NCBI GenBank assembly: GCA_963664305.2
Contig: CAXXLV010000002.1
Span: 64,001-128,000, forward strand
Direction: 5' to 3'
DNA: 64,000 nt
From: an uncultured Aliarcobacter sp.
Lineage (GTDB): Bacteria > Campylobacterota > Campylobacteria > Campylobacterales > Arcobacteraceae
In this document: positions 10,778-28,370 of the stretch, in pieces
Layout: every line of letters begins with the position of its first letter
How positions within the stretch are numbered: the first letter of the stretch is position 1
The notes under the pieces: model-generated
Told to the model about the DNA's origin: nothing
What the model saw: the letters and a program-made list of their open reading frames with translations, nothing else
Databases searched by the model: none
Program-made: the position numbers and the translations under genes

Positions 10778-11398
10778 ATGAATTGTATAAATTTTAATAA
10801 TGAAAAGATCAATCCATCAAAAATAATATGTGTCGGAAGAAATTTTGTTGATCATATTACTGAATTGAACAATGAAATACCAGAAAATATGGTAATCTTT
10901 AATAAACCCAATTCTTCAATTTCTCAAGATCTATTTTATTTTTCTGAGGATACTCGATTTGAAGGAGAACTTTGCTTTTTAGTTGTAAATAAAAAAATAA
11001 CAGGTATAGGTTTTGGACTTGATTTAACTAAAGCAAATATACAAAATAAAATGAAAGAAAAGGGATTACCATGGGAAAGAGCAAAGTCGTTTAATGGTTC
11101 TGCTGTTTTTAGCAACTTCATTGAATTTGATGGTGATATGAAAAATTTAACATTTAAACTTTTTATAAATGAAAAACTTCAACAAGAAGGCAATTATGAA
11201 CTGATGATTTATAAACCTGAAATAATGGTTGAAGAAATTGAAACGTTTATGAGTATAGAAGATGGTGATATTATTATGAGTGGTACTCCTAAAGGAGTAG
11301 GAACTTATAAAGTTAATGATACCTTTAAATCTGTAATATATTATAAAGAAGAAATTTTAATAGAACATATTTGGGATGTAAAAAATAACAATAGTTAA
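10778..11398 (+). CDS. Island-borne full-length FAH-family protein (paralogue of the disrupted host gene)
   Basis: KIICVGRNFVDH, FNKPNSS, FEGEL, GLDLT, KGLPWERAKSF, GDIIMSGTPKGVG. Confidence 0.93.
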   Translation: MNCINFNNEKINPSKIICVGRNFVDHITELNNEIPENMVIFNKPNSSISQDLFYFSEDTRFEGELCFLVVNKKITGIGFGLDLTKANIQNKMKEKGLPWERAKSFNGSAVFSNFIEFDGDMKNLTFKLFINEKLQQEGNYELMIYKPEIMVEEIETFMSIEDGDIIMSGTPKGVGTYKVNDTFKSVIYYKEEILIEHIWDVKNNNS

Positions 11399-11484
11399 TT
11401 AGAAGTCATAAAATTACATTATTTAAATTAAACAGTTAATTAGAGTTTAATATTTTTTAAATAAAAGAAATTAGTCTATATTTT

Positions 11485-12590
11485 GAGACCGTTAAATATT
11501 CCGTGTCAAAGTAATTCTGATAGGAGAAATCCTATCACACATGAACTTAAATTTTAAGTTCACTATCCAGTCTACCCTCGAAAAATATTGCCAGTTGTGA
11601 AAGTGTTAAACTCCAATTCCATACTGGCATTGTCCATTTTTTCTCAGCATTTTTTATTCCCATAAAAAGCAATTTTAGCAAAGAATTATCATTTGGAAAT
11701 GCACCTTTAGTCTTAGTTAGTTTCCTAAATTGTCTATGTACTGATTCAATTAAATTTGTTGTATTTGTAAGATTTAATTTCTTGTGATTTTTATAGATAA
11801 AAAGATATGGCAAATTATTTCTAATACTACGATAAGCAGCTACAAGTTTTTTTGAGTAAAAAAATATTTTTGACTATCTGGATGAAGAGTAATTTCATTA
11901 AGGAAATCTTTATATTTGATATACCAAATATCTAATGCTTTTATAAATCTACTCTCATCACTATATTTCAATCTAGTCACAATTTTCTTTAACTCTTGGC
12001 TAGCTTCTAGTTTTAGATGTAATGTTATATATCTTTGAATAATACGTTTCTGGTAAAAATGACTCATTTGTACAGGATAATCTTTAAATACGTTAGATAC
12101 CCCTCTTTTACCATCTATTGTTACAGATAAAATTGTATATCCTAGATTCAATAGTTCTATTAATAAATATTTATAATCATCTAATCTTTCTGTTTGTATA
12201 TGTTTCCAAATTAGAATCTCATGGGGGGAAGGCTGTCCATAAAAACTAAAGTACCTAACTTATCTTTTCTTTTACTATAGAAGGTTGTATCACATATTAA
12301 ATTTACTGGTCTTGGATTATGTACTTTTTCAATAGGAAGATATTCTTTAATTTTATAATGAACCCATTGTATAGATTTATTATATTTATCTGCTAAGTTT
12401 TGTAAAGATTGTCTATGATAAACATATTCTTTGAAAAGATGATTTTCTAGTTTTTCTGGTCATCTTTTTGATTGAAATTTTTACCACAATTATTACATTG
12501 ATAACGTTGAATTTCTTTTCTTTTACCAATCTTTTTTGTGTTTTTAGATAAACATTTTGGACATATTTAAGTGTTTTTTTACAGACATCT
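11485..12590 (-). mobile_element. Decayed, chimeric IS256-family remnant
   Basis: IS256-like end gagaccgttaaatattccgtgtcaa at 11485; classical IS256 C-terminus [23 protein letters not shown]; upstream broken transposase with CPKC...YQCNNC zinc finger and DTTF / TIDGKRG DDE segments, several stops and frameshifts. Confidence 0.8.
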
Positions 12591-12737
12591 GTAAATAATC
12601 CTTTTTAACTAACGATAGTACCGAAGTTTACTTAACTTTTTAGACCCTTTTTTAATTAATCCTTTTTTTATATTAACAGGAATAGATAATTATCTATATA
12701 GATGAAATGCCATTTTAAATAATAAACAAAATTTAAT

Positions 12738-12974
12738 CTATTTAACTAATATTTCAATATCAACATCTAAAATTTTTGAAATTTTATATAAATGTTCAAG
12801 ATTAAAATGCTTTTTATTTTTATATAGTTCAGCTGCAGATACTAGACTTACAGATTTATAATTCATTTCATAACTTAATTGTAATTGAGTTATACCTTTT
12901 ACTTCTCTATATTTCTTGACATTTTTACCAATTTTTATATAAAACTCTTCAATTTCATTTTTGGAAAAATTCAT
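12738..12974 (-). CDS. XRE-family HTH regulator
   Basis: IGKNVKKYREVKGITQLQLS...NLEHLYKISKILDV. Confidence 0.85.
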   Translation of the reverse strand: MNFSKNEIEEFYIKIGKNVKKYREVKGITQLQLSYEMNYKSVSLVSAAELYKNKKHFNLEHLYKISKILDVDIEILVK

Positions 12975-12980
12975 TTAAAC

Positions 12981-13041
12981 CTACTATAGTAATTTATTTT
13001 AAGTTTATTTGTTATAGAATTTTTCTTCAAACTACTATAGT
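12981..13041. promoter_or_regulatory. Two copies of ctactatagt (palindromic core actatagt) between divergent genes; putative operators
   Basis: Identical 10-mers at 12981-12990 and 13032-13041. Confidence 0.55.
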
Positions 13042-13052
13042 GGGTTAAAAGA

Positions 13053-13667
13053 ATGGAAGAGATTTATAAAGCAGAATTTTTAGAAATACAATTAAAAATT
13101 TTAAAAGATACTATAAAAGATTTAGAAAAAATTTTATATTCCAATATACATAAAAATTCAAATACATATAAAGAACTTAAATTATATATTAATTCACTGA
13201 TTCAAGAAAAATATATTTATGAAAGAGAATTAAATTCCTCAAAAGAATTTTATTTAGAAAAATCAATTTCAACAATTAAAGTAAAGACTAAAATATTAGA
13301 TAATTTATTTAATATAAAAAAAACTTTTAAATGTCGTTCTATATCAGATACACTTGAACTACTTTTAGAGTTTTATATGGATGATAAATATTATGATCAA
13401 TTAAATGAAATTATGGAATGTGTTATTCCAAGTAAATTAGAAAGAAATTTAAATAAATCTTTTTTTTATATATGTAAATGTGAAAATATAGATTGTAAAG
13501 TAATTTACTTTATTGATGATGTAATAATTAAAAATGATACTAAATATTTAGACTTGAGAAAATTTAAATCATTTAAAAAATCAAATTTTGAAGAATATTT
13601 ATTTTCACCAAATCTTAATTTAGATGATTTGGATAATTTCTATAAAATACTTGCTGATTCATTTTGA
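13053..13667 (+). CDS. Hypothetical protein
   Basis: 204-aa ORF divergent from the XRE gene; no recognised family. Confidence 0.55.
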   Translation: MEEIYKAEFLEIQLKILKDTIKDLEKILYSNIHKNSNTYKELKLYINSLIQEKYIYERELNSSKEFYLEKSISTIKVKTKILDNLFNIKKTFKCRSISDTLELLLEFYMDDKYYDQLNEIMECVIPSKLERNLNKSFFYICKCENIDCKVIYFIDDVIIKNDTKYLDLRKFKSFKKSNFEEYLFSPNLNLDDLDNFYKILADSF

Positions 13668-13894
13668 TTTTATTTTGTTGACAATACAACATTCAATTAA
13701 AATGATTAAATATAATAAAATGAAGTGTTTTTTTATAAAAAACAAACTTTTTATTTTAATTAGATTTATAAGCTTATTTTTTTATTCCATAATCCCTTAA
13801 GGTTTGTTGAACTTTGCATTTTTTATTTTTTGAACACTTTTTGGAACATGGAAAATGCATTAATATAGTATATGTTATATATCCTAGAGGTTTT

Positions 13895-13941
13895 GGATAA
13901 AGCTGTTCAGAATTTTGTATCTTATTTCTTGTTGCCAGATC
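13895..13941 (+). repeat. 47-bp motif, copy 1 of 3 (others 29639-29685, 30887-30933)
   Basis: ggataaagctgttcagaattttgtat...ccagatc aligns without gaps to the other two copies. Confidence 0.6.
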
Positions 13942-14025
13942 ACAAATCTATATTTTATATATTTCAATTTAGTTCTCTTCAGCTGGTTCTACTTGAAATA
14001 ATTTTGGTATAAGTTCATTATACAT

Positions 14026-14317
14026 TATTTAAATTATTTCCTACATTTAAATTTAATGTATCATTTGCTCTTACATTTACACCTACAAAGTTTGCATCAT
14101 TTATCTCAATAATACTAATTTTCCTTTTGAAATATTTCATCAAATTTATTTTGATTATCTTTTATCAAAGTTCTAAATTCTGTATTATTTTCCAATTTAT
14201 TATAAACTTCTTGTTTTGACAAACCCATATTTTTTAGAATAATTATTTTCTCTTCTATTGTTCCATAATTATATTTGTACTTTTCTTCTTCTGACTGGAA
14301 AACTGATTTTTGTTGAA
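14026..14317. repeat. ~290-bp direct repeat of 21882-22173 (immunity-gene 3' end plus start of next stalk)
   Basis: Near-identical DNA at offset 7856. Confidence 0.9.
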
Positions 14318-14609
14318 AAATTACTTTTGAGTTATTTGATTCATTTTTATCAACATTCTTGAAATATTTAAACTGAAATTTAAATATAAAAATTAATAAT
14401 AAAAATTGAATAATAAAAAAAATTGTAAAAAACTTTTCATTATTAAAAAATTTTCTTTCAAAAATAAAAATTATTGCAGAAAAAATTACATAGAAAAAAA
14501 CTAATACATAAATATTTATTTGATACATTTTAGCTATATATGAAAATAAAGCTATTCCTATTAAAAATATAAATATCACTAACAAATAATAAAATATTTC
14601 TTTAATCAT
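14115..14609 (-). CDS. Putative immunity membrane protein (paralogue of 21971-22471)
   Basis: About 3 TM segments; C-terminus KYKYNYGTIEEKIIILKNMGLSK...FQKEN shared with paralogue; overlaps upstream tip stop. Confidence 0.65.
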   Translation of the reverse strand: MIKEIFYYLLVIFIFLIGIALFSYIAKMYQINIYVLVFFYVIFSAIIFIFERKFFNNEKFFTIFFIIQFLLLIFIFKFQFKYFKNVDKNESNNSKVIFQQKSVFQSEEEKYKYNYGTIEEKIIILKNMGLSKQEVYNKLENNTEFRTLIKDNQNKFDEIFQKEN

Positions 14610-14931
14610 TTGACAATACTCCTTCGATTATTTCTCTTGGCTTCTGTGTTGCAATTTGTTCAATAATAATTGGTGTTACAATTGTTCCAACTCTTTTTTT
14701 TATTTCAGAATCTATACTTGATAATTTTTCTTCAAATTTTAATCTTTTAGTATTACTAGTTAAATTTGGATTGTTAATTTGATTTAAAATTGTATTTCTC
14801 GCCGATATTCTTTCTTTTAATTCTTTTATACCATCATATTTTGTATCAGAAAAAGAACCTATTGTACTTGCAATCATTGTTTCATTTAAATTAATTTTTT
14901 CTAAATCTATCTTATTATAAATTTCACTCAA
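14602..14931 (-). pseudogene. Orphan toxin-tip fragment homologous to the tip of 22461-25004
   Basis: ERISARNTILNQI...KPREII versus DRVKARNTVQNQL...EPKEIV. Confidence 0.6.
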
Positions 14932-15188
14932 AGTTTCAGCAGGATTATTATTTTCTGTTCCTCTATCAGTTGCTTGATATTGGTTTTTTTGGGTAAAAAT
15001 ATTTCCATTTGTATTATATCAAATGCTCCACCTGCAAGCAAAGTATCTATCGCAAATCCCGAACTAGCATTTTAATAAACTCTTGAACTCTTACATCATT
15101 ATTATCTAAATTATCTAATTATATTTCTTTTAGAAGGTAACTTTTAAAACAATTTAACTGCCTATTTTTTCACTTTCTTTAACATTTA

Positions 15189-15485
15189 TTACTTCCCTTC
15201 AATTTTATTGTTTTGGAAGACTTCTTTTTCTTTGTCCGTTAATGGAATAAAAAGTTTCTGATCAAATTCCTGTTTAGGCATATTTTTTAAATTTGTTGCT
15301 TCTTCATATTTATCTACTATCCAATAAAGTGTAAAAACAACAATAAATCCAAATAATAAATTCTTTATATCTTTTTTTATTATAGAGAATACATATGATT
15401 TACTTTTCGTTTTGTTATATGATTGTATCCAAGTGTATAAATAAAAACCAATAATTAAAGACCATATAATAATTAATTTAATCAT
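15189..15485 (-). CDS. Putative immunity membrane protein
   Basis: Two TM segments; likely start MIKLIIIW at 15485, immediately after a tip-remnant stop. Confidence 0.55.
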   Translation of the reverse strand: MIKLIIIWSLIIGFYLYTWIQSYNKTKSKSYVFSIIKKDIKNLLFGFIVVFTLYWIVDKYEEATNLKNMPKQEFDQKLFIPLTDKEKEVFQNNKIEGK

Positions 15486-15486
15486 T

Positions 15487-15633
15487 TTATTTTTCTTCTT
15501 CGATGAAAATAAAGTTTGCACCTTCTGTTATACCATATGTTGCACCTTGAAATTTTATATGATTCCACTGATTTTGGATATGAGCATCAATTCTAGGTTA
15601 TGGTTTATCTATTTTTGATTGAGTTTGTGCCAT
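15487..15633 (-). pseudogene. Remnant toxin tip with internal stop
   Basis: AQTQSKIDKP*PRIDAHIQNQWNHIKFQG resembles ATAITKINKLDNRIDAHTNNIIDNVVTQG of 15911-17020. Confidence 0.55.
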
Positions 15634-15651
15634 TTTTTTTGTAATTTTGAA

Positions 15652-15924
15652 TTACTTTTTATTAAAAATATTCTTTATATTATCAAAAACAAATTTCTTA
15701 GAAGGTGGATAATTTAAAATAAAAGCAATTACTATTAGGATACAACTTAAAATCCATTTAGCATAATCGCTAAAATATATAGATATTAAACCTGTAATTC
15801 CACCTAATAAAACTATATATACGGAATATACTAGCCCTTCCTTAAGTCCATTTTTTCGACTAAAATAAATTATTCCTATGACTATTAATATAATTCCAAT
15901 TACAATATTACTATTCATTTTCAT
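15652..15924 (-). CDS. Putative immunity membrane protein
   Basis: About 3 TM segments in 90 aa; overlaps the end of the upstream cassette. Confidence 0.6.
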   Translation of the reverse strand: MKMNSNIVIGIILIVIGIIYFSRKNGLKEGLVYSVYIVLLGGITGLISIYFSDYAKWILSCILIVIAFILNYPPSKKFVFDNIKNIFNKK

Positions 15925-17977
15925 TTCCTACTTTTTTTTCATCTAATTCTTTCACAATAATTTTTCCTCCTGCTATCATTCCTTGTGTTACTACATTATC
16001 TATTATATTATTTGTATGTGCATCAATTCTATTATCCAACTTATTAATTTTTGTTATAGCTGTTGCTGTCTCTTTTTGTTTTTTCAAACTAACTATTGCT
16101 TTAGAAGAATTATATACACTTTTAGCAGCTCCTAAACCACTTGGTGCAACTGCACCAATAGCTGTCATCATTCCAACATCAAACCAATCAACTTCAACTT
16201 CATCGACATTTATATTTTTTGGTTGCCAACCTTTATCATTTAATTGACCAACAACTTGAGGTACTGTTTGCATTCCAAACTCTATACCTCCACCAACTGA
16301 CATACCTATTATAACTGGTATTACAAAAACTGGTAAATCATCCCCATTACTCTTATCCAAAGAAGCAAATTCGTTATTGTTATTTACCAACCAACTATTA
16401 TCTTTATTAAATATTGAAGGTTCTGTTGTAACTATTCCTGTATTATGATTATTAGTATCTGATAAGTAACTATTAAAGAGATTATTCAATATAAAACTCA
16501 TATCATTTACTGTATCTTGTGCTATTGCATTTTGATATTCATTGTGTACATCTCTATTTTGTGTTATATCTATACCATTTGCATTTTGTATTGCTCCTGC
16601 AAATTCCTGTCCAAGTGTATATATTGTATCTTTTGTTGAATCTTGATTTTTATCATTTGAATAAATTGTATCATTTTCAAGTGAGATATACCCTTTTACT
16701 TGTGTACTATTTACTCCTGTTTCATCTGTTGATATTACTTTTACACCATTTGCTAAAGAGTAACCTAATTCATTTTCTAAAGCTTTTAACATTTGGTTTG
16801 CATATATTTGTTTTTCTTCAAGTGATAAATTAGAATCTTGTAGTTTTTCAGCTAATTGAGGATTTTCCATTAAAAGTTTTTTATATGCGTTATATTGATC
16901 TACACTTTGTCCTGTTTGTTTAAAGAAATCTTGAATTCCTACATCATCCAATGTTGCTATTTTTTCAACTGTATCTATTATCTTTGAAGCTATTTTTGCA
17001 TCTTCTTTTATTTGATTCAATCCATTTACAGTTAAAATCTAGTATCTAAAGTTGCATCTACTTTTGTTCCTGTTGAGCTTGAATATAAATCTTTATTTAT
17101 ATTTTGTGTATCTGTATTTAATTTTGTTAAATCATCACTATTCTCTTTATCTTTTATAGTTATATTCCCTTGACCTAATGTTGCTAATGTTTTACTTACA
17201 TTTACATCTAATCCTGTTGATGAGTTATATCCTACTGAAGATATTCCACCTTGTTGTGGTTCTTCTTTTTGATTTACTATTTTTGTACTACTTAAATTAT
17301 AATTTAGATTTAAACCTAAACTTTGATTTGAAGAGAAAGAAGAGTTTGACAAGTTTGAAAAAGTTAAAGTATTTGTTGATAAATTTAGATTTTTATTATC
17401 TACAAAGTTTTCATTCTCATTATAATTTCCACTTGCTAACAAAGAACCTTTTAGATTAGTATTTTCACCAACATTTACATTTAGATTATTTGCAGTAACT
17501 GAACTCAACACTGTTTGTTTTGTTTGTGTTACTCCATTATTTACACTAAATCCTCCATTTACAGAACTTACTTTTCCTACATCTAAACTTGGTGTTCTAT
17601 TTGCTGCTGCTCCTGCACTTCCAAATCCTAGTCCTGCATTTACATTAAATCCTTTTGAATTTGAAGAATATTCATCTCTTAGGGATTCTATATTTAAATT
17701 ATTTCCTACATTTAAATTTAATGTATCATTTGCTCTTACATTTGCACCTACAAAGTTTGCATCATTTGAAACATTTATATTCATATTATTTGCTAATAAT
17801 TGTGAGTTGTTATTTATTATAGTATCACTTGAAGAATTACTTTTTCCATAACCCAACCCAGCGGTTCCACCACCACCTCCATACATTGTAAATGCTATAC
17901 TTCCATTTATATTTTCACTATCATTTGTATTTGAGTAATTATCTTGACTTGCTTTTACATTTAAGTTATTTGTATTT
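15911..17977 (-). pseudogene. Haemagglutinin-repeat C-terminal cassette, split by a 1-bp deletion near 17037
   Basis: ORFs 17032-17886 and 15911-17020 join as DTRLLTVNGLNQIKED if one base is restored, as in sibling copies; 17038-17977 is near-identical to 23925-24864. Confidence 0.85.
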
Positions 17978-18008
17978 TATTGATTTTAGATTCAGACTCA
18001 ATTTTTAT

Positions 18009-18452
18009 CTATTTCACTTTTAGATAATCATATTTATTTGGATTATTCAACAAATTTGGATTAATCTCTTTTGTGTAACTTTGAGGTTCTTTTTTTGGGA
18101 AACCTCCATTAATGTCTTTAATTATGAGGTATGTTAAGCCTAAAATTGATGCTATTAACATACATAATGATATTAACAATACAAATTTATTTTGTCCTTT
18201 TCCAAAGTTACATTTATTTTTCCACATTATGAACATTAATAATAATCGTCCCTCTGCAATTGATAAAAAAATTAATAATGCATATTTATATTCATTATTA
18301 AAATTAAAAATAATTATATATATAAAATAGTTTAAGATAAGGGAAGGTACTATACATAGTATGGAACCTATAAATAATTTAAAATTTTTATTAATATCTG
18401 TATAGTTCAAGATTAATCGTTCATACCACTTCCATAATTTACTTAGACTCAT
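18009..18452 (-). CDS. Putative immunity membrane protein
   Basis: About 3 TM segments; overlaps the end of 18439-19860. Confidence 0.6.
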   Translation of the reverse strand: MSLSKLWKWYERLILNYTDINKNFKLFIGSILCIVPSLILNYFIYIIIFNFNNEYKYALLIFLSIAEGRLLLMFIMWKNKCNFGKGQNKFVLLISLCMLIASILGLTYLIIKDINGGFPKKEPQSYTKEINPNLLNNPNKYDYLKVK

Positions 18453-19860
18453 ATTTTATATCTCCTACTTTTATAAGATTTAAATTTAATCCACTATTCT
18501 CTATTGTCCATATCGGTCTAGGTTTTATTATATTATTTCGATTAAATATTTTTATATCTTTTATATTATTATTTTCATAAGATGGTAAATCATTTGATAT
18601 ATTTACTATTTCATCACTATTTGCACTATCTCTTTGTATCTCCAATATTTTTGCATTTGTATTAAATGTATTTATACTTTGCACTAAATTATAATAACTT
18701 AATCCTGCTCCTAATTTTTGATATATTACTTTATTAGTTGGTAATCCCAATAATGCTGGAATATAAGTATTCTGTGCGGCACTAAAAGTATCATCATGTG
18801 TTTCATTTGAAATATTCCTAACCGTATCAACTCCCCAAGCAACACCTGAAACTATTGGACTTGGTACTAATCCAGCTGTTGTTAAGGCTGCACTATTAAA
18901 TACATTTGTATTTTGTTCTCCTAAACTTGAAGGTTGATATTGTGTATCTTCATAATTATTTACATCCATCATTCGAACTAATTTTCCTGTTTGCAAATCT
19001 ACATAATAGTTATTTTTTGCATCTTCTTGTATTTGTTGTTTTATTTCATTTATTACAAACAACACTTCATCTTTTATATTTTGATTTTCTGCTTTTTTTA
19101 ATACTTCATCTAATTTTTTCTGTCCATATTCATCAATCATAGCATTTTGAGTTAATTCATACAAATAATTTATATTTTCCAAAGAAAGATTTGAACTATT
19201 TTGAGCAAGAGCTTCTTTCAAATCATTCGCATTTTGTGTAAATAATAATGCTTTTTCTTCTATTGATAATTGTCTATCATCAATTCTTCCTTCACCACTA
19301 TTTAGCTTACTTGCATCTTGAAGATACAAACTTGTATTTGCTTTTAATGTATTTAAATCTTGATTTGTTACAACAATTTTATTCAATATAGGATTACTAT
19401 TTAATTGAACATTATTATACACGTAAGAAGAAAAATCTAATCCACTTGCTGAGTAATTACCAAATATATTCGCATATTCTTCTTGTAATTGTGTTGTATC
19501 TCTTAAGTAAGTTTCTCCTTGATTTTGTCTTACATGAGCTACTTCATGTCCTAAAGTGTTTGCAGAACTTAGAGCATTTTGATTTAGGATTTTATCAAGG
19601 TAGATATTTGAATTTATATTATCTTCATTTGTATATGTTGAACCATATTTATTTAATATCGCCATTTTTACTATATCTATATTTACTCCATAAGTACTTG
19701 CATATATTTGTGCATAATCATTTATTGCTGTATCTATTTGTGTTTGTGAATAATTAAATTGATTCTCTATAATATCTACAGTTTTTCCATCATTTTTTAG
19801 AGCTAGGGCTTTTTGTACATCTAAATCTATTGAAAATGGAGCTGTAACTGCCCTTTTCAA
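18439..19860 (-). CDS. Orphan C-terminal cassette (HExxH domain plus variable tip)
   Basis: DLDVQKALALK and LGHEVAHVRQ...EGRIDD shared with 22461-25004; 19277-19586 near-identical to 23233-23542; unique sequence after DD. Confidence 0.8.
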   Translation of the reverse strand: MKRAVTAPFSIDLDVQKALALKNDGKTVDIIENQFNYSQTQIDTAINDYAQIYASTYGVNIDIVKMAILNKYGSTYTNEDNINSNIYLDKILNQNALSSANTLGHEVAHVRQNQGETYLRDTTQLQEEYANIFGNYSASGLDFSSYVYNNVQLNSNPILNKIVVTNQDLNTLKANTSLYLQDASKLNSGEGRIDDRQLSIEEKALLFTQNANDLKEALAQNSSNLSLENINYLYELTQNAMIDEYGQKKLDEVLKKAENQNIKDEVLFVINEIKQQIQEDAKNNYYVDLQTGKLVRMMDVNNYEDTQYQPSSLGEQNTNVFNSAALTTAGLVPSPIVSGVAWGVDTVRNISNETHDDTFSAAQNTYIPALLGLPTNKVIYQKLGAGLSYYNLVQSINTFNTNAKILEIQRDSANSDEIVNISNDLPSYENNNIKDIKIFNRNNIIKPRPIWTIENSGLNLNLIKVGDIKYESK

Positions 19861-20111
19861 AAATTGTCATTTTTATTATTTCCCTTATCTTTTTTATAAC
19901 TTTTATAAATAGAAATACCTTGAACAATAGCTACTATAGAACCTCCAACAATAATTAATATCCCCATCATAATATTGGATATTTCATCTGTTCCCCATTT
20001 TGTATAAGAAGGGTCTAAAATTGTTACAATACCCATAAATATTGCAATAATAGCAGTTAAAAATGTACTATTAATTTTTGATAATAAACTATTTCTCATT
20101 ATTTTTCTCAT
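19857..20111 (-). CDS. Putative immunity membrane protein
   Basis: Two TM segments, 84 aa; overlaps the upstream cassette end. Confidence 0.6.
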   Translation of the reverse strand: MRKIMRNSLLSKINSTFLTAIIAIFMGIVTILDPSYTKWGTDEISNIMMGILIIVGGSIVAIVQGISIYKSYKKDKGNNKNDNF

Positions 20112-21999
20112 TTTCCATTAATTTATTATTCCCATATCCTAACCAGCCCCATTTAGATGTAGGTATTGTGTCAAAATTCTGCCCAGAATAAATATCATAG
20201 GAGTTGGCTATAGGTTTTGGAAGCCAACCAGTTGCTCCATATTCAACAATTGTCATTGCAGGTCTAATAGTTAAATTTCTAGCCCACTCTGGCATATTAT
20301 TATAAGCAGTTGAAATATCTTGTGATATATCATCTCTTTTTAAATAAACTGTACTTACATTATTTCCAAACTGATTAATCACTTCTCCTGATTTATTTAT
20401 TACTTTTATCATTGGTTGATTCATATTTTTATCTATTTCTCCTTCTATTTCTCTATGTATATCATTTTCATTTGTTGGTGTATTAAGATAACTTTGTATT
20501 GCTAATACAGCCGGGATTATTAAAAGAGGACTATCATCCCCACCAGACTTATCAAGTGAAGAAAATTGTACATTATTTCTATTTAGCAGATTATTACTAA
20601 TATTAAATACACTTGGTACTGATGTTACTATCCCTTGATTATGTGTATTTGTATCAGCTAAACTTCCACCAGTAATAATACTTAATGCTCCATTTGTATA
20701 AAAGGCTAAATCTTCTCCAAAGTTTGTTGCATATATATTTTGGTCTTTATCATTTGACACAAATATTTTATCTTGTTTATCCATATCATGACTTATTTCA
20801 TGTCCCAAAGATGCTATCAATTGTGTTGTCGAGTCATTATATTTATCATTTACATAACTAGTATTAGTTTTATCATCAAAGTATCCTTTTACTTGTGTAT
20901 TATTTACTCCTGTTTCATCTGTATAAATTAATTTTACATCATTTGACACATATCCTAATTCTTGCATTACTGTTAGGGCTAATTCTTTTAACATATTTTG
21001 TTTATCTGTTGGGTTTAAATCTGAGTTTTGTAATTGTTTAGCTAATTCTTCATCATTTGCTATTTTTGCTTTAACACCATTATATACATCTATATTTTTT
21101 TGAGTTTCACTAAAAAAATCAGTTAATCCTACTTTATCATTAGTTACTATTTGTTCTATTGCGTTTGTTATTGCCGTTGCTGTATTATAATCATCTTTTA
21201 TTTGATTCAATCCATTTACACTTAAAAGTCTTGTATCCAAGGTTGCATCTACTTTCGTTCCTGTTGAGCTTGAGTATAAATCTTTATTTATATTTTGTGT
21301 ATCTGTATTTAATTTTGTTAAATCATCACTATTCTCTTTATCTTTTATAGTTATATTCCCTTGACCTAATGTTGCTAATGTTTTACTTACATTTACATCT
21401 AATCCTGTTGATGAGTTATATCCTACTGAAGATATTCCACCTTGTTGTGGTTCTTCTTTTTGATTTACTATTTTTGTACTACTTAAATTATAATTTAGAT
21501 TTAAACCTAAACTTTGATTTGAAGAGAAAGAAGAGTTTGACAAGTTTGAAAAAGTTAAAGTATTTGTTGATAAATTTAGATTTTTATTATCTACAAAGTT
21601 TTCATTCTCATTATAATTTCCACTTGCTAACAAAGAACCTTTTAGATTAGTATTTTCACCAACATTTACATTTAGATTATTTGCAGTAAGAGAACTCAAC
21701 ACTGTTTGTTTTGTTTGTGTTACTCCATTATTTACACTAAATCCTCCATTTACAGAACTTACTTTTCCTACATCTAAACTTGGTGTTCTATTTGCTGCTG
21801 CTCCTGCACTTCCAAATCCTAGTCCTGCATTTACATTAGATCCTTTTGAATTTGAAGAATATTCATCTCTTAGGGATTCTATATTTAAATTATTTCCTAC
21901 ATTTAAATTTAATGTATCATTTGCTCTTACATTTGCACCTACAAAGTTTGCATCATTTATCTCAATAATACTAATTTTCCTTTTGAAATATTTCATCAA
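20089..21999 (-). CDS. Orphan haemagglutinin-repeat C-terminal cassette
   Basis: Stalk DANFVGANV...ATLDTRLL shared with siblings; LGHEISH; KSGGDD boundary; unique tip; true homology begins at about 21958. Confidence 0.82.
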   Translation of the reverse strand: MMKYFKRKISIIEINDANFVGANVRANDTLNLNVGNNLNIESLRDEYSSNSKGSNVNAGLGFGSAGAAANRTPSLDVGKVSSVNGGFSVNNGVTQTKQTVLSSLTANNLNVNVGENTNLKGSLLASGNYNENENFVDNKNLNLSTNTLTFSNLSNSSFSSNQSLGLNLNYNLSSTKIVNQKEEPQQGGISSVGYNSSTGLDVNVSKTLATLGQGNITIKDKENSDDLTKLNTDTQNINKDLYSSSTGTKVDATLDTRLLSVNGLNQIKDDYNTATAITNAIEQIVTNDKVGLTDFFSETQKNIDVYNGVKAKIANDEELAKQLQNSDLNPTDKQNMLKELALTVMQELGYVSNDVKLIYTDETGVNNTQVKGYFDDKTNTSYVNDKYNDSTTQLIASLGHEISHDMDKQDKIFVSNDKDQNIYATNFGEDLAFYTNGALSIITGGSLADTNTHNQGIVTSVPSVFNISNNLLNRNNVQFSSLDKSGGDDSPLLIIPAVLAIQSYLNTPTNENDIHREIEGEIDKNMNQPMIKVINKSGEVINQFGNNVSTVYLKRDDISQDISTAYNNMPEWARNLTIRPAMTIVEYGATGWLPKPIANSYDIYSGQNFDTIPTSKWGWLGYGNNKLMENEKNNEK

Positions 22000-22471
22000 A
22001 TTTATTTTGATTATCTTTTATCAAAGTTCTAAATTCTGTATTATTTTCTAACTTATTATAAACCTGTTGTTTTGACAAACCCATATTTTTTAGAATAATT
22101 ATTTTCTCTTCTATTGTTCCATAATTATATTTGTATTTTTGTTCTTCTGTTTGAAAAGCTGATTTTTGTTGAATGGTCACTTTTTCATTTATCGGTTGAC
22201 TATTCTTAGTGAATTCTGTATATAATGCATGTGATGCCACTATTAAAAACGCTCCTAAAAAAAAGTATTTATCTAAAAACTTTTGTAAAAAAATTTTTAA
22301 AATGAAAGATAAAAATATAAAAGTTAAGATATATATAAAAATTAATAAATATACATTATTTATAGCTATATTATCATAACTAATCAATGTTATTAAGGAA
22401 AAACTAAAACCTAAAAATATTGAGAATATACCCTTAAAAAAATCATTAATTTCATTCCAATTAATTTTCAT
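21971..22471 (-). CDS. Putative immunity membrane protein (paralogue of 14115-14609)
   Basis: About 3 TM segments plus shared C-terminal domain; overlaps the stop of 22461-25004. Confidence 0.65.
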   Translation of the reverse strand: MKINWNEINDFFKGIFSIFLGFSFSLITLISYDNIAINNVYLLIFIYILTFIFLSFILKIFLQKFLDKYFFLGAFLIVASHALYTEFTKNSQPINEKVTIQQKSAFQTEEQKYKYNYGTIEEKIIILKNMGLSKQQVYNKLENNTEFRTLIKDNQNKFDEIFQKEN

Positions 22472-25004
22472 TAGTATTTCCTTCAGGTAAGTTGTCTTGT
22501 ATTATTTCTTTCACTATTTCCTTTGGTTCAGTATTTAAAATTGTTTTAGTAACCTCAGGTATCAAAAGAATTTTTGTTTTATCAATAATTTGATTATCAA
22601 TTTTTTCTACTCTATTATTAAGTTTATTTTGCAAAGTAGGGCTTGTTGCTTTATCTAATTGATTTTGTACTGTATTCCTAGCTTTAACTCGGTCAATAAC
22701 ATTATTTACATTAGTTGATGTTTTTGTACCTGTTGAACCAATTCCCACAGATACAGCGGTTTGAGTCCAATCAATATTATCTACAATTTTTTTAATAGCC
22801 TCCGCTGGATTAGCTAGTAATTCTTGTCTTATTTGTTCATTATTAACCAATTGTGTAACAGTTTGGTTAAGTAAATCAGAACTAGCCGTAAATCCTGCAT
22901 TTTTAAGTGATAATTCCATACTCTTTTTAGTAATAGCTTCAGCAATATTTTTTACTACTTCTCTTCCACCTAAAGCAAGTTCACTAGCTTTTAAAGATAA
23001 TATCATATTATCCACTAACTTATTTGCGTCATCAACTTGTTGTTTTTGAGAAACATATATATTATCAAATTCTTCTTGACTTAATCCTCTTAAAGTACCA
23101 TCATTTATTACTTGTTTTAAAATTTCACTTTCTGTATTTCCTGTTTCTATCAATGCTTTTATTCTATCTTTTGCATTATCTGATTGTAAATCTTTTGTTC
23201 TATCCATATCTTGAAGCGTCCAGTAACTTTCGTCATCAATTCTTCCTTCACCACTATTTACCTTACTTGCATCTTGAAGATACAAACTTGTATTTGCTTT
23301 TAATGTATTTAAATCTTGATTTGTTACAACAATTTTATTCAATATAGGATTACTATTTAATTGAACATTATTATACACGTAAGAAGAAAAATCTAATCCA
23401 CTTGCTGAGTAATTACCAAATATATTCGCATATTCTTCTTGTAATTGTGTTGTATCTCTTAAGTAAGTTTCTCCTTGATTTTGTCTTACATGAGCTACTT
23501 CATGTCCTAGAGTGTTTGCAGAACTTAAAGCATTTTGATTTAAAATCTTATCTAAATATATATTTGAACTAGTACTATCTGCATTTGTATACGTTGAACC
23601 ATATTTTCCTAATAAAGCAACTTTTGCTGTTTCAATATTTATTCCATAAATATCTGCATAAATTTGAGCATAATCATTTACTGCATTGTCTATTTGTTCT
23701 TGAGAATAATTTTGTTGATTTTCCAAGATATTTATTGTTTGTCCATTATCTTTTAATGCTAGTGCTTTTTGTACATCTAAATCTTTTTGTACATCACCTA
23801 TATGATCAAATGTATCAGTAATTTTAAATGCATCAGAGGTTGCAACATCACCTATAGCTTGACCTAATCTTTTTGTTCTTTCTAAATCTTCTTTTATTTG
23901 CTTTCTACCATCTTCAGTTAAAAGTCTAGTATCTAATGTTGCATCTACTTTCGTTCCTGTTGAGCTTGAGTATAAATCTTTATTTATATTTTGTGTATCT
24001 GTATTTAATTTTGTTAAATCATCACTATTCTCTTTATCTTTTATAGTTATATTCCCTTGACCTAATGTTGCTAATGTTTTACTTACATTTACATCTAATC
24101 CTGTTGATGAGTTATATCCTACTGAAGATATTCCACCTTGTTGTGGTTCTTCTTTTTGATTTACTATTTTTGTACTACTTAAATTATAATTTAGATTTAA
24201 ACCTAAACTTTGATTTGAAGAGAAAGAAGAGTTTGACAAGTTTGAAAAAGTTAAAGTATTTGTTGATAAATTTAGATTTTTATTATCTACAAAGTTTTCA
24301 TTCTCATTATAATTTCCACTTGCTAACAAAGAACCTTTTAGATTAGTATTTTCACCAACATTTACATTTAGATTATTTGCAGTAACTGAACTCAACACTG
24401 TTTGTTTTGTTTGTGTTACTCCATTATTTACACTAAATCCTCCATTTACAGAACTTACTTTTCCTACATCTAAACTTGGTGTTCTATTTGCTGCTGCTCC
24501 TGCACTTCCAAATCCTAGTCCTGCATTTACATTAAATCCTTTTGAATTTGAAGAATATTCATCTCTTAGGGATTCTATATTTAAATTATTTCCTACATTT
24601 AAATTTAATGTATCATTTGCTCTTACATTTGCACCTACAAAGTTTGCATCATTTGAAACATTTATATTCATATTATTTGCTAATAATTGTGAGTTGTTAT
24701 TTATTATAGTATCACTTGAAGAATTACTTTTTCCATAACCCAACCCAGCGGTTCCACCACCACCTCCATACATTGTAAATGCTATACTTCCATTTATATT
24801 TTCACTATCATTTGTATTTGAGTAATTATCTTGACTTGCTTTTACATTTAAGTTATTTGTATTTATATATAAATTCTCATCTGCAACAACATTTGAACCT
24901 ACTATATTTGTATTTGTACTTAATTTTTCATCTGTATTTATATAAATATTTTTTGCATTTAGGTTTGACAATAGATTTTTATTTACTATTAGGTTTACAC
25001 TCAA
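22461..25004 (-). CDS. 5'-truncated haemagglutinin-repeat exoprotein (CdiA/TpsA-like C-terminal portion)
   Basis: Asn/Ser/Gly-rich beta-helix-like repeats (LNVNVGENTNLKGSLLASG), HEVAH motif, variable tip; no signal peptide or TPS domain seen. Confidence 0.82.
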   Translation of the reverse strand: MSVNLIVNKNLLSNLNAKNIYINTDEKLSTNTNIVGSNVVADENLYINTNNLNVKASQDNYSNTNDSENINGSIAFTMYGGGGGTAGLGYGKSNSSSDTIINNNSQLLANNMNINVSNDANFVGANVRANDTLNLNVGNNLNIESLRDEYSSNSKGFNVNAGLGFGSAGAAANRTPSLDVGKVSSVNGGFSVNNGVTQTKQTVLSSVTANNLNVNVGENTNLKGSLLASGNYNENENFVDNKNLNLSTNTLTFSNLSNSSFSSNQSLGLNLNYNLSSTKIVNQKEEPQQGGISSVGYNSSTGLDVNVSKTLATLGQGNITIKDKENSDDLTKLNTDTQNINKDLYSSSTGTKVDATLDTRLLTEDGRKQIKEDLERTKRLGQAIGDVATSDAFKITDTFDHIGDVQKDLDVQKALALKDNGQTINILENQQNYSQEQIDNAVNDYAQIYADIYGINIETAKVALLGKYGSTYTNADSTSSNIYLDKILNQNALSSANTLGHEVAHVRQNQGETYLRDTTQLQEEYANIFGNYSASGLDFSSYVYNNVQLNSNPILNKIVVTNQDLNTLKANTSLYLQDASKVNSGEGRIDDESYWTLQDMDRTKDLQSDNAKDRIKALIETGNTESEILKQVINDGTLRGLSQEEFDNIYVSQKQQVDDANKLVDNMILSLKASELALGGREVVKNIAEAITKKSMELSLKNAGFTASSDLLNQTVTQLVNNEQIRQELLANPAEAIKKIVDNIDWTQTAVSVGIGSTGTKTSTNVNNVIDRVKARNTVQNQLDKATSPTLQNKLNNRVEKIDNQIIDKTKILLIPEVTKTILNTEPKEIVKEIIQDNLPEGNTNEN

Positions 25005-25033
25005 TTTTTACCTCTACTTCTTGCTTTCATATG

Positions 25034-25059
25034 CGTTCCCAACGGGGACGTTGGGAACG
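25034..25059. repeat. GC-rich perfect hairpin, REP-like
   Basis: cgttcccaacg-ggga-cgttgggaacg: 11-bp stem, 4-nt loop. Confidence 0.75.
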
Positions 25060-25061
25060 AA

Positions 25062-25222
25062 AAAAAGTTTCCATTCTCATCATAGTTTCCACTTGCTATT
25101 ACTGAGCCTTTTAGGTGTGTATTATTTTCTACATTTACATTTATATCTTAGGCTTTGATATTTGCACCTTCTATTTTTCCATCATTAGATATATTTAGGT
25201 TTAATTTTTCTGATTGAACCAT
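25062..25222 (-). pseudogene. Divergent haemagglutinin-repeat fragment
   Basis: MVQSEKLNLNISNDGKIEGANIKA*DINVNVENNTHLKGSVIASGNYDENGNF, homologous to the stalk. Confidence 0.65.
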
Positions 25223-25244
25223 ATAGACCTATATTCCTTTTGTA

Positions 25245-25436
25245 TTATCTATGTTTTTCATAAAGTTCCGAAAGTGGTATTTGTTTTGTAGGTGAAGAAG
25301 AATCATAATAATACCCTTTTTGAGGAGTGAAATTTTCATTACCACAACCAATAATACAAGAATAATATTGTGGTTCAGATTCAACACAACCACTAAATAT
25401 TATTACTGTTAATAAAATTAATATTAAATTTTTCAT
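25245..25436 (-). CDS. Small lipoprotein
   Basis: Lipobox IFSGC after a hydrophobic signal. Confidence 0.6.
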   Translation of the reverse strand: MKNLILILLTVIIFSGCVESEPQYYSCIIGCGNENFTPQKGYYYDSSSPTKQIPLSELYEKHR

Positions 25437-25445
25437 ATTTTAAAT

Positions 25446-26147
25446 TTATTCATCCCAACCATCTTTTATATACAAACTATCAAGCATTCTTTTTGCTCTT
25501 TCTTGCAAGTCTTCATAAGTATAATCTTTTATTAAATCTAATGTCTCTTTGGGATAATCTATAGATTTGCTGTAAGTGAAAGTAATTACAACACCTTTAG
25601 CCATTGCTCTTTTTTTATTAAACTTATGACAATCATAAGTTTTAGATATTTCATTTTTTCTATTATCTTTTGTTTCTTTTACAATACAAATATAATTTTC
25701 TTTACCTTGTGTTTCATAATGAACATTAATATTTCCTTCTATATCATATTTTTTATTTATTCTATTTTTCATATTAGCTTTAAGATATGATTCATCTTTA
25801 TACTCTACTGCTCTCTCTTTATATTTATAAATAAATGTTGATACATAAATATGATATAAAATACCATGATTATCTAGATATACTCCCATATTTTTATTAT
25901 AAGAAGTTACACCTTCCCAACCATTCATTAAAGTAAAATCTTCCTCTTTTGCACTTGGCAAAGCAATAGTATAATCTGGCATATCAAACACATAATCTCT
26001 CATTGTCTCTACATTTGCTATTTTAAAATTACTTGGTGGTTTATTTCCACTTGAAGCTACAAATAGATTTTCTACAGTATTCTCTAAACTTTTTGGTGAA
26101 CATCCATTTAAGATAAAAACTATCATAAATAAAAAAATATATTTCAT
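25446..26147 (-). CDS. Lipoprotein, putative effector-immunity paralogue
   Basis: Lipobox LNGC; C-terminus YTYEDLQERAKRMLDSLYIKDGWDE shared with the upstream paralogue. Confidence 0.75.
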   Translation of the reverse strand: MKYIFLFMIVFILNGCSPKSLENTVENLFVASSGNKPPSNFKIANVETMRDYVFDMPDYTIALPSAKEEDFTLMNGWEGVTSYNKNMGVYLDNHGILYHIYVSTFIYKYKERAVEYKDESYLKANMKNRINKKYDIEGNINVHYETQGKENYICIVKETKDNRKNEISKTYDCHKFNKKRAMAKGVVITFTYSKSIDYPKETLDLIKDYTYEDLQERAKRMLDSLYIKDGWDE

Positions 26148-26823
26148 TATTCATCCCAACCATCTTTTATATACAAACTATCAAGCATTCTTTTTGCTCT
26201 TTCTTGCAAGTCTTCGTAAGTATATTCTTTTGCTATATTTGGATTATTTGATCTATTATATGTTAAATTAATCCCAACAATTTTTGCCTTTGTTCGTGTA
26301 GTGTTAAACGTATAACATCCAAATGAAATTTTTTCCTTATTTTGATAAATATCTCTATTTGTTACTCCTTCCTTAACCTCACAAATATAATTTTCTTTGC
26401 CATGTCTTTGCAGTGATATATTCTTATTTGGGTAATATTTATGATAACGATTGTTTAAATATACTAAGTCTTCATTTTCAACAGCCCTCTCTCTTCATAT
26501 TTATAAATAGATGATGTTACATGTATATGATAAACAATGGAATCTTTTAAGCCTAATACGATGGTCTTTCCATCTCTCATACTCATACCATCCCATCCTC
26601 CCATCTTTGTAAAATCAGATTCCTTTGCCAATGGCAAAGAAAAAGAGAAATCTTTTGTATTAAAAACATAATCTTTCATAGTTTGAAGATTAGCTACTCT
26701 AAAAGATTGAGGAGGTTCATTACCACTTAATGAAATCATCATGTTTTCTACAGTATTATCTAAATTTTTTGGAGAGCAACCATTAAAAGTAAAAACTAGT
26801 ATAAATAAAATTATATATCTCAT
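26147..26823 (-). pseudogene. Paralogous lipoprotein frameshifted at a (GA)4 repeat
   Basis: Lipobox FNGC; removing one GA unit at 26487-26494 gives YEERAVENED... open to IKDGWDE*, with a TAATG overlap at 26147. Confidence 0.8.
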
Positions 26824-27013
26824 CTTTACTCTTTTGTCGTATCTAAAACAGTTTGTTTATTTTGCTGTGTAGATTCAGGTAATAAATTCATATTGATAGT
26901 TATTTGACCTTTTTCATTAGTGAAATTATTTTTATAATACTCAATTCTTGAATGTTGTCAAACGAAGTGTAAAAATAGGCAATTAAATTTTTAAAAAAGT
27001 TACCTTCTGAAAC

Positions 27014-27274
27014 TTAAACCACCTCAGTTTTTTCTACCATTTTGATTGAAGATTTTGCTCCAAATTTATAAATATCTGAATTTAAGATTCCCTGATTTTT
27101 TATATCTTTACTAACTTCAATAAGTTTCATTTCATAAACTTTATTTTCTTCTATTCTTTCATTTTTCTTTTGCTCTTCAAAATCTTTAATATTTTTATTT
27201 ATAACATTTGTTGCTATATCTGCATATGAAAAATTTAAAATAGTAAGTAACAATAATAAATATTTCTTTTTCAT
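27014..27274 (-). CDS. Signal-peptide ORF, possibly a truncated TpsB/ShlB-type N-terminus
   Basis: Sec signal ending SYA followed by a charged helix; position at the head of the cassette locus; family is a guess. Confidence 0.35.
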   Translation of the reverse strand: MKKKYLLLLLTILNFSYADIATNVINKNIKDFEEQKKNERIEENKVYEMKLIEVSKDIKNQGILNSDIYKFGAKSSIKMVEKTEVV

Positions 27275-27590
27275 TATTTCTCTTGTTTTACTTTAGATGA
27301 AATTGTAAAGAAAAGTCGTCACATATCGTGTCACAATTATTATTTTTTTATAAAATAATTAAATTTGATTTTAAATCATTAGTTTATTATTAAAAATATC
27401 TTAATTTTACTATACAAGCTTTTAGAATAAGTAAGTATCAAATGAGACCTAAATAAAAGAAAGATCATTATTAATCTTATGCATTTTTCAATCTATTATA
27501 AATATATACGAAAATTTCTTATACATTTTTCATTTATTAAACGAAAAACTTGTTTTTTTATTATCGCATAAAATATTGATTTTTTAGAAT

Positions 27591-27694
27591 ATTAAATATT
27601 TATAGTACCGAAAAACAGATGTTTTAAATAATTTCTTTTATGAATGATAAAATAAGAGTAAATTTAATACATTTAAATATTTGAAATAGCGTAT
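27591..27694 (+). repeat. 104-bp inverted repeat, left copy
   Basis: Ungapped match to the reverse complement of 30615-30718, 13 mismatches by hand count. Confidence 0.88.
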
Positions 27695-27699
27695 TTATT

Positions 27700-28134
27700 T
27701 TAATTTTCTTCAACAATTATACAATTTGTTTTATAGTAATTCATATCTTCAATTAAAATATCAAATATATCATAAATATTTTTCATTCTTATATTTACAT
27801 AAAAATTTGATAAATTATCTGCATTATGGTTTAAATTTGGTTTGTTATTTGGTACATTACATATATTTTCTTCAAAGCTCCATATCGCATCTTTTATAGA
27901 CAACTTTGAAAGCTCATTTTTTATAGTTTTTAACTCATTTTTAAATTTTTCTAAATCTTCAAACTTTACACCATTTTTTTCATCATAATACAAATTATTC
28001 ATTACTATTGGAAATCTACTCCCCCATTTACTATTTTCCAATCTATAACAGATAGTTGAAAACCAAGAATATAATGTTTCAGAATAACCAAATTCCATCC
28101 AATCCGAATATATTTTAAACCCTACATTTTTCAT
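27700..28134 (-). CDS. Imm70-like immunity protein
   Basis: VGFKI...LYSWFSTICYRLENSKWGSRFPIVMNNLY resembles the Imm70 signature. Confidence 0.7.
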   Translation of the reverse strand: MKNVGFKIYSDWMEFGYSETLYSWFSTICYRLENSKWGSRFPIVMNNLYYDEKNGVKFEDLEKFKNELKTIKNELSKLSIKDAIWSFEENICNVPNNKPNLNHNADNLSNFYVNIRMKNIYDIFDILIEDMNYYKTNCIIVEEN

Positions 28135-28367: not shown

Positions 28368-28370
28368 GTT

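Follow-up and report, generated by a model that had tools for sequence, protein, structure and literature searches.

Headless toxin-tip and immunity cassettes on a genomic island of an uncultured Aliarcobacter sp.: probably an immunity bank

The window analysed here is a 64,000-nt stretch from the genome of an uncultured Aliarcobacter sp. (source genome G000), and it carries at positions 14026-25222 an array of exoprotein C-terminal fragments ("tips") and small membrane-protein genes (Table 1; coordinates are window positions unless a contig is named). With a probability of about 0.7, we read this array as the headless tail of a two-partner-secretion (TPS) polymorphic toxin of the TpsA/CdiA or 'HecA' type, that is, as a set of orphan tip/immunity cassettes on a genomic island whose immunity genes serve as a shield. 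An immunity bank, or a cassette store that becomes usable after transfer, appears to be the best reading of the locus. Toxicity, immunity, expression, a membrane target and a peptidase role are properties that we infer.

The cassette array and its missing head

Every open reading frame (ORF) between 14026 and 25222 lies on the minus strand. The array consists of five units in which an exoprotein C-terminal fragment is overlapped by a small membrane-protein gene (A847+I166, B636+I84, C473+I147, D314/E375+I90 and F138+I164), a small membrane gene that stands alone, and two stubs of the stalk. The initial annotation had counted at least six minus-strand units, a figure that holds only if the solitary gene I110 is included; the true tip/small-gene pairs are five. 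No tip frame contains an ATG, and the first possible start in each, A847 included, is TTG.

A 944-nt stalk of the Fil_haemagg_2 type recurs as a direct repeat in three copies (17034-17977, 21225-21958 and 23921-24864). Copy 1 and copy 4 differ at 4 of 944 positions, and copy 1 and copy 2 at 6 of 734. A second shared block (19277-19586 and 23233-23542) shows 3 differences in 310 nt. Both recurrences had been located and described accurately before. Such long and near-identical repeats would be impossible by chance. The stub at 14026-14122 shares 99% identity with 21882-21978, and the extended comparison of 14026-14325 with 21882-22181 still gives 95%. PF13332 (Fil_haemagg_2) was matched by the 847-aa ORF (E 5e-25), the 636-aa ORF (E 9e-9) and the 284/314-aa ORF (E 6.5e-16); the scores of 88.9, 59.4 and 36.1 bits are all above the Pfam gathering cut-off of 22.

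Table 1. Features of the array and of the island that carries it (positions in the window)
Feature	Position	Strand	Remarks
Genomic island carrying the array	4843..31173		26.3 kb; in 5' part of FAA-hydrolase gene
Island integrase, tyrosine-recombinase-like	4948..6366	+	next to left junction; phrog_1 E 5e-16
Stub of next cassette (stalk start)	14026..14143	-	array cut off there
I164, candidate immunity gene, cassette 5	14115..14609	-	I166 paralogue; membrane half diverged, tail almost identical
F138, cassette 5 tip remnant	14602..15018	-	terminal tip domain alone; family of A847/E375 tips, 27-31% identity
I110, solitary small membrane gene	15189..15521	-	no preceding tip ORF
I90, candidate immunity gene, cassette 4	15652..15924	-	
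Cassette 4, D314 + E375	15911..17976	-	stalk D314 (17032-17976), tip E375 (15911-17038)
I147, candidate immunity gene, cassette 3	18009..18452	-	three membrane segments
C473, cassette 3 tip ORF	18439..19860	-	stalk-less; begins within HExxH middle domain; unique tip
I84, candidate immunity gene, cassette 2	19857..20111	-	two membrane segments
B636, cassette 2 tip ORF	20089..21999	-	partial stalk (= A847 residues 118-361), diverged HExxH (HEISH) middle, distinct terminal tip
I166, candidate immunity gene, cassette 1	21971..22471	-	N-terminal half membrane-spanning, C-terminal ~70 aa soluble
A847, cassette 1 tip ORF	22461..25004	-	stalk 23921-25004; HExxH zincin-like middle ~23205-23920; helical tip ~22464-22907
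G+C-rich perfect 11-bp-stem hairpin, like a repetitive extragenic palindrome (REP)	25034..25059		between stalk remnant and cassette 1
Degenerate stalk fragment, stop-broken	25064..25222	-	array's upstream end; 25064-25146 80% identical to stalk 17404-17486
Imm70-family immunity gene, solitary	27700..28134	-	upstream of array, same island; PF15601 E 3.8e-25, 88.6 bits vs cut-off 26.7

Relatives of the stalk were sought in 184 genomes of the family, G000 included, with residues 1-361 of A847 as the query. The stalk protein was matched in 22 of them, again including G000. In three congeners of the same genus the match lies near the end of a long open frame that also holds a TPS domain (PF05860): 3039 aa in G003 (stalk identity 78% at the amino-acid level), 2201 aa in G007 (72%) and 2250 aa in G016 (69%). 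An ORF of 543-545 aa stands directly upstream of the main gene in all three, and the one that was scanned (G003, 545 aa) consists of ShlB and POTRA_2 domains (E 5e-81). Meanwhile, shorter stalk-bearing orphans with small ORFs follow downstream of the main gene in the same three genomes. In G181, a fourth complete genome, a frame with a TPS domain lies 8.6 kb upstream of the stalk copies. This congener layout is, from its sequence, that of a TPS polymorphic toxin with orphan cassettes. The identity of 69-78% to full-length congener genes bears out the earlier description of the array as a set of orphan C-terminal cassettes from a polymorphic toxin of the TpsA/CdiA type, with a small membrane gene beside each.

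The corresponding head was not found in the G000 genome, which comprises 2.78 Mb in two contigs (C1 and C2), is 99.96% complete and was searched with 8 kb masked (C1:80001-88000, a segment flanked by housekeeping genes). As initially described, the island holds neither an N-terminal TPS secretion domain nor a ShlB-type (TpsB) gene. Each occurs once in the genome, and the two matches lie side by side at C2:743.8-748.1 kb, some 660 kb away from the array. The sole TPS-domain gene (C2:745495-748080) encodes 861 aa and its TpsB partner 562 aa; neither resembles the stalk or the tips in nucleotide or protein sequence. When the stalk DNA and all six tip proteins were compared with G000, they matched the array alone, plus a small orphan at 805 kb. 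The N-terminal ~1,500-2,300 residues of the full-length proteins of G003, G007 and G016 had no match in G000; the full-length and TpsB proteins of these congeners matched only at the array and, at 22-24% identity, at this distant TpsB. No cognate cdiBA/tpsBA pair was found upstream of the array in the assembled genome. What was found is a group of putative immunity genes on acquired mobile DNA (an island insertion) with no cognate weapon in the assembled genome. As a separate observation, the 861-aa TpsA/562-aa TpsB pair (region C2:739937-750738) is flanked by sensor-kinase and response-regulator-like genes and is unrelated to the array.

These searches bear directly on one of the two functions first proposed for the array, namely a silent library that re-arms a full-length tpsA or cdiA elsewhere in the same genome by homologous recombination. 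Such a mechanism is established for orphans that lie beside their main gene (PMC3848433, PMC4927057; the literature is cited throughout from the available parts of each source), and the 944-nt stalk repeats are long enough as a recombination substrate. However, the stalk repeat, searched against the genome for a full-length tpsA/tpsB, was found only in the array, the sole TPS gene is unlike it in DNA and protein, and the heads of the three congeners' proteins match nothing outside the masked segment. The proposal was not supported, and we consider re-arming within G000 highly improbable. The other function first proposed, an immunity bank, would agree with the anatomy of the locus.

Candidate immunity genes, tips and the zincin-like middle domain

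The shield reading of the array depends first on the small genes. Each of the six has 2-4 hydrophobic segments in a Kyte-Doolittle scan. They start with ATG in five cases and GTG in one, and all six frames are intact. In five of five pairs the start of the small gene and the tail of the tip ORF share 8-23 nt (11 nt between the ATG of I166 and the end of A847). Domain scans (Pfam, NCBIfam, PADLOC) returned no family for any of them. The pairs keep together in other genomes. In L026, a contig of a metagenome-assembled genome (MAG), an F-type tip 92% identical to ours is followed by an I164-type gene that is 93% identical (L026:10874-11368). G016 has two orphan tips, 71% and 63% identical to the terminal tip of B636, which are followed by I84-type ORFs with identities of 70% and 52%. 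Covariation of tip and small gene across genomes is borne out by these pairs. By their position, their overlap with the tip frames and their co-conservation with the matching tip, the small genes are candidate immunity genes.

Comparison of I166 with I164 gives a further hint. Their soluble tails are almost identical and their membrane halves diverged, while the tips in front of them are just 27% identical. If the two are immunity proteins, this suggests that specificity resides in the membrane half and that the tips act on membranes; a membrane target would follow solely from the membrane nature of the small genes. Prediction of a complex between the A847 tip and I166 gave no answer (score 0.00). 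Between I164 and its MAG counterpart there are 13 non-synonymous changes and 1 synonymous change, too few to call, with the direction being that of diversifying selection.

A second, miniature orphan is the one at 805 kb (G000:C2:805363-806032). It comprises 81 codons from the very end of the C473 tip (96% aa identity) and an I147 paralogue with a diverged membrane core, and over 700 nt it is 82% identical to the end of the C473 tip plus I147. It adjoins two ORFs that resemble, by eye, SMI1/KNR4-type immunity proteins, and a resolvase-like gene.

Further candidate immunity genes lie upstream of the array on the same island. No recognisable toxin stands in front of the solitary Imm70 gene (27700-28134); Imm70 was paired with Tox-REase-10 by Zhang et al. 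2012 (PMC3482391). Three lipoprotein-like ORFs, of 63 aa, 233 aa and a truncated 119-aa duplicate, occupy 25245-26823, just upstream of the array, and downstream of the G003 orphan array there is an ORF with 91% identity to the 233-aa one. The three may be immunity genes against periplasm-acting tips.

A full cassette is built of three layers, namely the Fil_haemagg_2 stalk, a middle domain of ~240 aa with an HExxH motif, and a variable terminal tip. The stalk ends with '...YSSSTGTKVDATLDTRLL' in all copies and in the congeners, and similarity falls off beyond this point. Neither a VENN motif nor a PT-VENN Pfam match was detected; the boundary is instead an abrupt one at '...VDATLDTRLL'. This LDTRLL boundary would be a class other than VENN or (E/Q)LYN.

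The middle domain is common to A847 and C473 (the middle part of C473 is 86% identical to A847 residues 408-592) and diverged in B636. The corresponding region of E375 is 42% identical to that of B636, with a degenerate HExxH motif. Twenty database homologues were collected, one of which (P0006) is the window's own C473 ORF; the others include P0003, named Aliarcobacter skirrowii by its source, and one from a Sedimenticola. Some of the homologues end in a TNT domain (PF14021), in Pertussis_S1/Enterotoxin_a (ADP-ribosyltransferase) or in WHH plus Colicin-DNase. Among 23 aligned middle domains, G152, E154 and Y177 are invariant, and H153, H157 and E175 are kept in at least 90%. The AlphaFold model of the domain reached a predicted local distance difference test (pLDDT) value of 90. 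Its best structural matches are all weak and all zinc peptidases: PprI/IrrE (Z 6.6), CapP (6.3), an IrrE-like regulator of M. tuberculosis (5.8), SPRTN (5.5) and HtpX (5.1). A Foldseek search with the same model returned nothing at E<=0.001. The domain is probably a zincin-like, in-built processing or releasing peptidase, as the conserved motif and the model suggest. Among the toxins of type V secretion systems (T5SS), HINT is the only processing protease given in Table 1 of Zhang et al. 2012 (PMC3482391).

The terminal tips fall into more than one family. A847, E375 and F138 have in common a C-terminal domain of ~110 aa, for which no Pfam family was found. A profile of this domain retrieved 29 representatives at E<=1e-3 among 1.84 billion proteins, and in every protein that is much longer than the domain the matching part is at or close to the C-terminus. 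Thirteen of the 29 were scanned, and RHS repeat, RHS core or YD-shell features were present in six. To be carried by TpsA as well as Rhs proteins is a hallmark of polymorphic toxin domains. The AlphaFold model of the tip is all-helical and weak (pLDDT 65). The tips of B636 and C473 are distinct from this family and belong to no named one; a sequence search of the PDB gave no match for the B636 tip and ten at E<=1 for the C473 tip (best E 0.13), none of them credible. NCBIfam and PADLOC likewise gave nothing credible for the tips, the small genes or the genes of the island. In the ESM Atlas, residues 600-847 of A847 came closest to unnamed clusters (0.89-0.90), followed by PT-VENN and PT-TG clusters (0.87-0.88), which are leads only. 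Three elements are modestly new: a class of boundary marked by LDTRLL, the occurrence of a zincin-like pre-toxin domain in a toxin of the T5SS, and a helical tip family that has no name and also occurs on Rhs proteins.

Taken together, the proposed mechanism would run as follows. The tips would not be exportable from the G000 cell, there being no TPS secretion domain, signal peptide, proper start codons or cognate TpsB. Still usable would be the six small membrane immunity genes, together with the Imm70 and lipoprotein genes upstream, all acquired with the island, and these would shield the cell against the same tips when delivered by neighbouring kin strains that keep the full system. Meanwhile, the near-identical stalk and middle blocks would keep the cassettes recombining among themselves, and after transfer of the island or transformation the cassettes could recombine with a full-length gene in another strain. 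A bolder version makes the locus a mobile 'ammunition and armour' module, carried from one Arcobacter-like strain to another by the integrase island, which would protect its carriers at once and re-arm recipients that have a compatible haemagglutinin gene, with the zincin-like domain as a self-releasing peptidase of a type unlisted so far for type V secreted toxins. We regard this version as speculative and rather improbable.

Several results weigh against a shield. At 25% G+C, the genome still keeps tip frames of 847, 636 and 473 codons open, with one frame break in five cassettes; this exceeds the needs of a pure immunity bank and suggests that the head was lost recently or that the tips themselves are under selection. 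Of the tips deployed on the main genes of G003, G007 and G016, none matches the array's tips or immunity genes, and hence no attacker was found. Promoter-like sites between 13500 and 26000 are at chance level (100, compared with 98 +/- 9.6 in shuffles; for terminator-like sites the figures are 1 and 1.9), and none of the 23 sequencing runs listed is of RNA. The masked 8 kb also count on this side. So does the comparison of the F tip with its counterpart, where 9 non-synonymous and 6 synonymous changes make dN/dS uninformative at such counts. As to the peptidase, the structural matches of the middle domain are under the level of a safe fold call (Z<8), and no Pfam family reaches its cut-off, the nearest being PF13699 eCIS_core/PVC-metallopeptidase (E 0.024 and 0.045; 15.3 and 14.4 bits vs 22) and M91 (E 0.043).

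A different use of the pairs would be as intracellular, toxin-antitoxin-like addiction modules that stabilise the island, the tips being made from internal starts. Modules of contact-dependent inhibition (CDI) have been reported to stabilise their carrier islands, though via cell contact (PMC4927057), and B636 and its L026 counterpart start at the same point, overlapping the preceding immunity gene. However, the tip frames offer TTG and not ATG as their first candidate starts, and the published stabilisation needs cell-to-cell delivery, hence the missing head. We hold this explanation to be very unlikely.

Relation to known orphan-cassette systems

By its sequence organisation, the array is a further example of a known orphan-cassette arrangement, akin to tpsC/IORF of Neisseria and to cdiA-CT/cdiI. 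In Neisseria meningitidis, the tpsC cassettes are 5'-truncated copies of tpsA with immunity ORFs (IORFs) interspersed (Arenas et al. 2013, PMC3848433). Both systems have serial truncated copies with small ORFs and long, near-identical stalk stretches (99% over ~1.4 kb in Neisseria; PMC3848433). In Neisseria, similar tips are always followed by similar small ORFs and recombination can occur at any stretch of identity, and the array is alike in these respects (PMC3848433). The Neisseria cassettes, however, trail tpsB-tpsA in the same island, whereas the G000 array has no matching tpsB/tpsA in its genome. The sequences are also unrelated beyond the haemagglutinin repeat class, and the array has a zincin-like middle domain.

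Orphan cdiA-CT/cdiI modules have no start signals and work as pairs, and immunity or later deployment has been proposed as the reason for their retention (PMC3150448, PMC4927057). Those of E. coli, Yersinia and Dickeya resemble the array in that start-less tips, each followed by an immunity gene, stand in tandem and point the same way as the main gene (Poole et al. 2011, PMC3150448; Ruhe et al. 2016, PMC4927057). Further traits common to both are neighbouring transposase or integrase genes and homology kept upstream of the variable part (PMC3150448, PMC4927057). Compared with these orphans, the array has no VENN but the boundary '...DATLDTRLL', much longer blocks of homology, and no delivery genes.

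Immunity without a weapon is known as well. The acquired interbacterial defence (AID) clusters of Bacteroidales provide it on acquired DNA (bioRxiv 10.1101/471110), and the genome of S. Typhi, which has no cdi genes, carries an orphan CdiI on an islet (PMC9086364). Both resemble the array as weapon-less immunity on acquired DNA that is presumed to protect against neighbours. The difference is that the AID and S. Typhi loci hold immunity genes alone (against toxins of the type VI secretion system, or a single CdiI), whereas the array keeps long tip frames beside each.

Within the family, hecA/hecB of Arcobacter butzleri are among the closest known systems, and hecA has been treated as a virulence marker (Miller et al. 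2007, PMC2147049). Like the full-length relatives in the congeners, they encode a filamentous-haemagglutinin-family protein with a ShlB/HecB-type partner, whereas G000 has the tails only. In a limited literature search, no treatment of hecA in Arcobacter as a CDI or polymorphic toxin with orphans was found. The locus and its full-length relatives have the layout of an interbacterial polymorphic toxin, which would change how presence or absence of hecA/hecB is read. Since only tips and immunity genes are present, on an island with a defined insertion site, the array is also a clean case for telling orphans kept for immunity from orphans kept in reserve. Candidates for biochemistry are the pre-toxin domain with its HExxH motif and the helical tips that Rhs proteins also carry; neither has a curated family.

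Assembly, trimming and the genomic island

The repeats called for a check of the assembly. Two sequencing runs, X1 and X2, hold 95-98% of the stretch; both probably derive from the source sample and so are not independent. The stalk contig had a depth of 28.3 in X1, against 7-11.4 for unique pieces, and of 17.3 in X2, against 4-6.6, a ratio that fits about three copies. The short-read contigs stop at the repeats and none bridges the unique pieces, so the order of the cassettes rests on the deposited two-contig assembly. The lack of bridging is what speaks for the repeat structure being an assembly artefact. However, the stalk has about three times the depth of unique pieces in both runs, and the copies can be told apart by a few fixed positions and by their different in-frame flanks. 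As equivalent arrays exist in the congeners and in the MAG, an artefact is unlikely, and with all of this we rate it as exceedingly improbable.

The array is evidently trimmed at both ends and recombined internally. In L026, the junction equivalent to 14026-14143 continues into a complete 679-aa cassette, and hence the G000 array is cut off at 14026. At the other end, the degenerate fragment 25064-25222 matches the TpsA of congeners by tblastn (e.g. residues 2537-2563 of G003). Its part 25064-25146 is the remnant of a further cassette, because its stalk position normally falls downstream of the start of A847. The hairpin at 25034-25059 may mark the event that trimmed the array. Its sole other genomic copy, at C2:1293865, adjoins a 177-aa ORF (C2:1293282-1293815), which from its appearance we take to resemble a REP-associated tyrosine transposase. 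Internally, a contig of 1,295 nt from a sludge metagenome, with 10 mismatches, connects 23233 with 19276 over the 310-nt block. It corresponds to the exact product of recombination across that block, with the C473 tip placed behind a stalk-bearing piece.

Such trimming could also be expected of a genomic fossil, that is, of functionless debris from a decayed CDI locus on its way to deletion. The stub at 14026, the degenerate end at 25064-25222, the one-base frame break of D314/E375 precisely at the stalk/tip junction of cassette 4, the stalk-less cassette 3, the tip-only cassette 5 and the Mutator-family transposase fragments nearby (11547-12151) all fit this explanation. However, none of the six small genes is broken and each has a proper start, three long tip frames have stayed open in a genome so AT-rich that stops arise easily, and tip/immunity pairs stay together in other genomes. 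We therefore regard a mere fossil as doubtful and prefer to see the array as a shield that has lost its weapon.

The array sits on an island inserted in an FAA-hydrolase gene. All three sites that were fetched (G010, G038 and G011) are empty, and there window position 4842 adjoins 31167-31180 within a few bases. In G010 and G038, ~690 bp separate the TauE-like gene (3948-4751 in the window) from the 1054-aa sensor kinase (31762-34926). The FAA-hydrolase gene is intact in the three congeners (216 codons in G010) and split in G000, with its first ~39 codons at ~4766-4842 and the rest at 31201-31704. The phrog_1 match of the integrase (E 5e-16) is accompanied by a Pfam Phage_integrase match at E 9.6e-5, which is under its cut-off. 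Empty sites in three congeners together with the integrase substantiate the mobile island that had been proposed from the window. A local inversion of an ancestral locus was considered as well (the G007/G016 locus lies beside RNase HII and ClpB, which are at 38.1 and 42.1 kb in the window) and dropped, since island insertion explains the position of the array better.

If the island is mobile, it might be a shuttle, a transferable store of cassettes that re-arms the full-length genes of other strains and for which the present host is only a carrier. The integrase-bearing insertion absent from the same site in three congeners agrees with this, as do the largely open tip frames, the near-identical stalk copies and the recombinant across the shared block in another sample. 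Moreover, tpsC DNA that is taken up by Neisseria recombines into tpsA wherever the two share a short identical stretch (PMC3848433). However, with only 69-78% amino-acid identity to the main genes of congeners, the stalk is a poor substrate for recombination across species. No second copy of the island was found: the nearest integrases are 35-40% identical, in 9 of the 183 other family genomes, which leaves the island untraced, and the whole array had no megablast match in a plasmid collection. A shuttle is unlikely in our view but deserves consideration, while immunity genes kept as a shield remain the preferred reading of the array.

The other cargo of the island includes Mutator-family transposase fragments, two helix-turn-helix genes, the Imm70 gene and the lipoprotein genes. 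An intact FAA-hydrolase paralogue (51% aa identity) lies at 10778-11398, ~6 kb inside the left end. The transposase fragments are two adjacent ORFs near the low-coordinate end of the array, one of which matches PF00872 with E 3e-7. The island ends form, by eye, an imperfect inverted repeat (CCYATTAGTTARATA). Following the integrase, ORFs of 654, 587 and 118 aa without a family occupy 6368-10725, and the 587-aa one has a faint phrog_1 match (E 0.006); these ORFs may constitute a multi-recombinase integration module.

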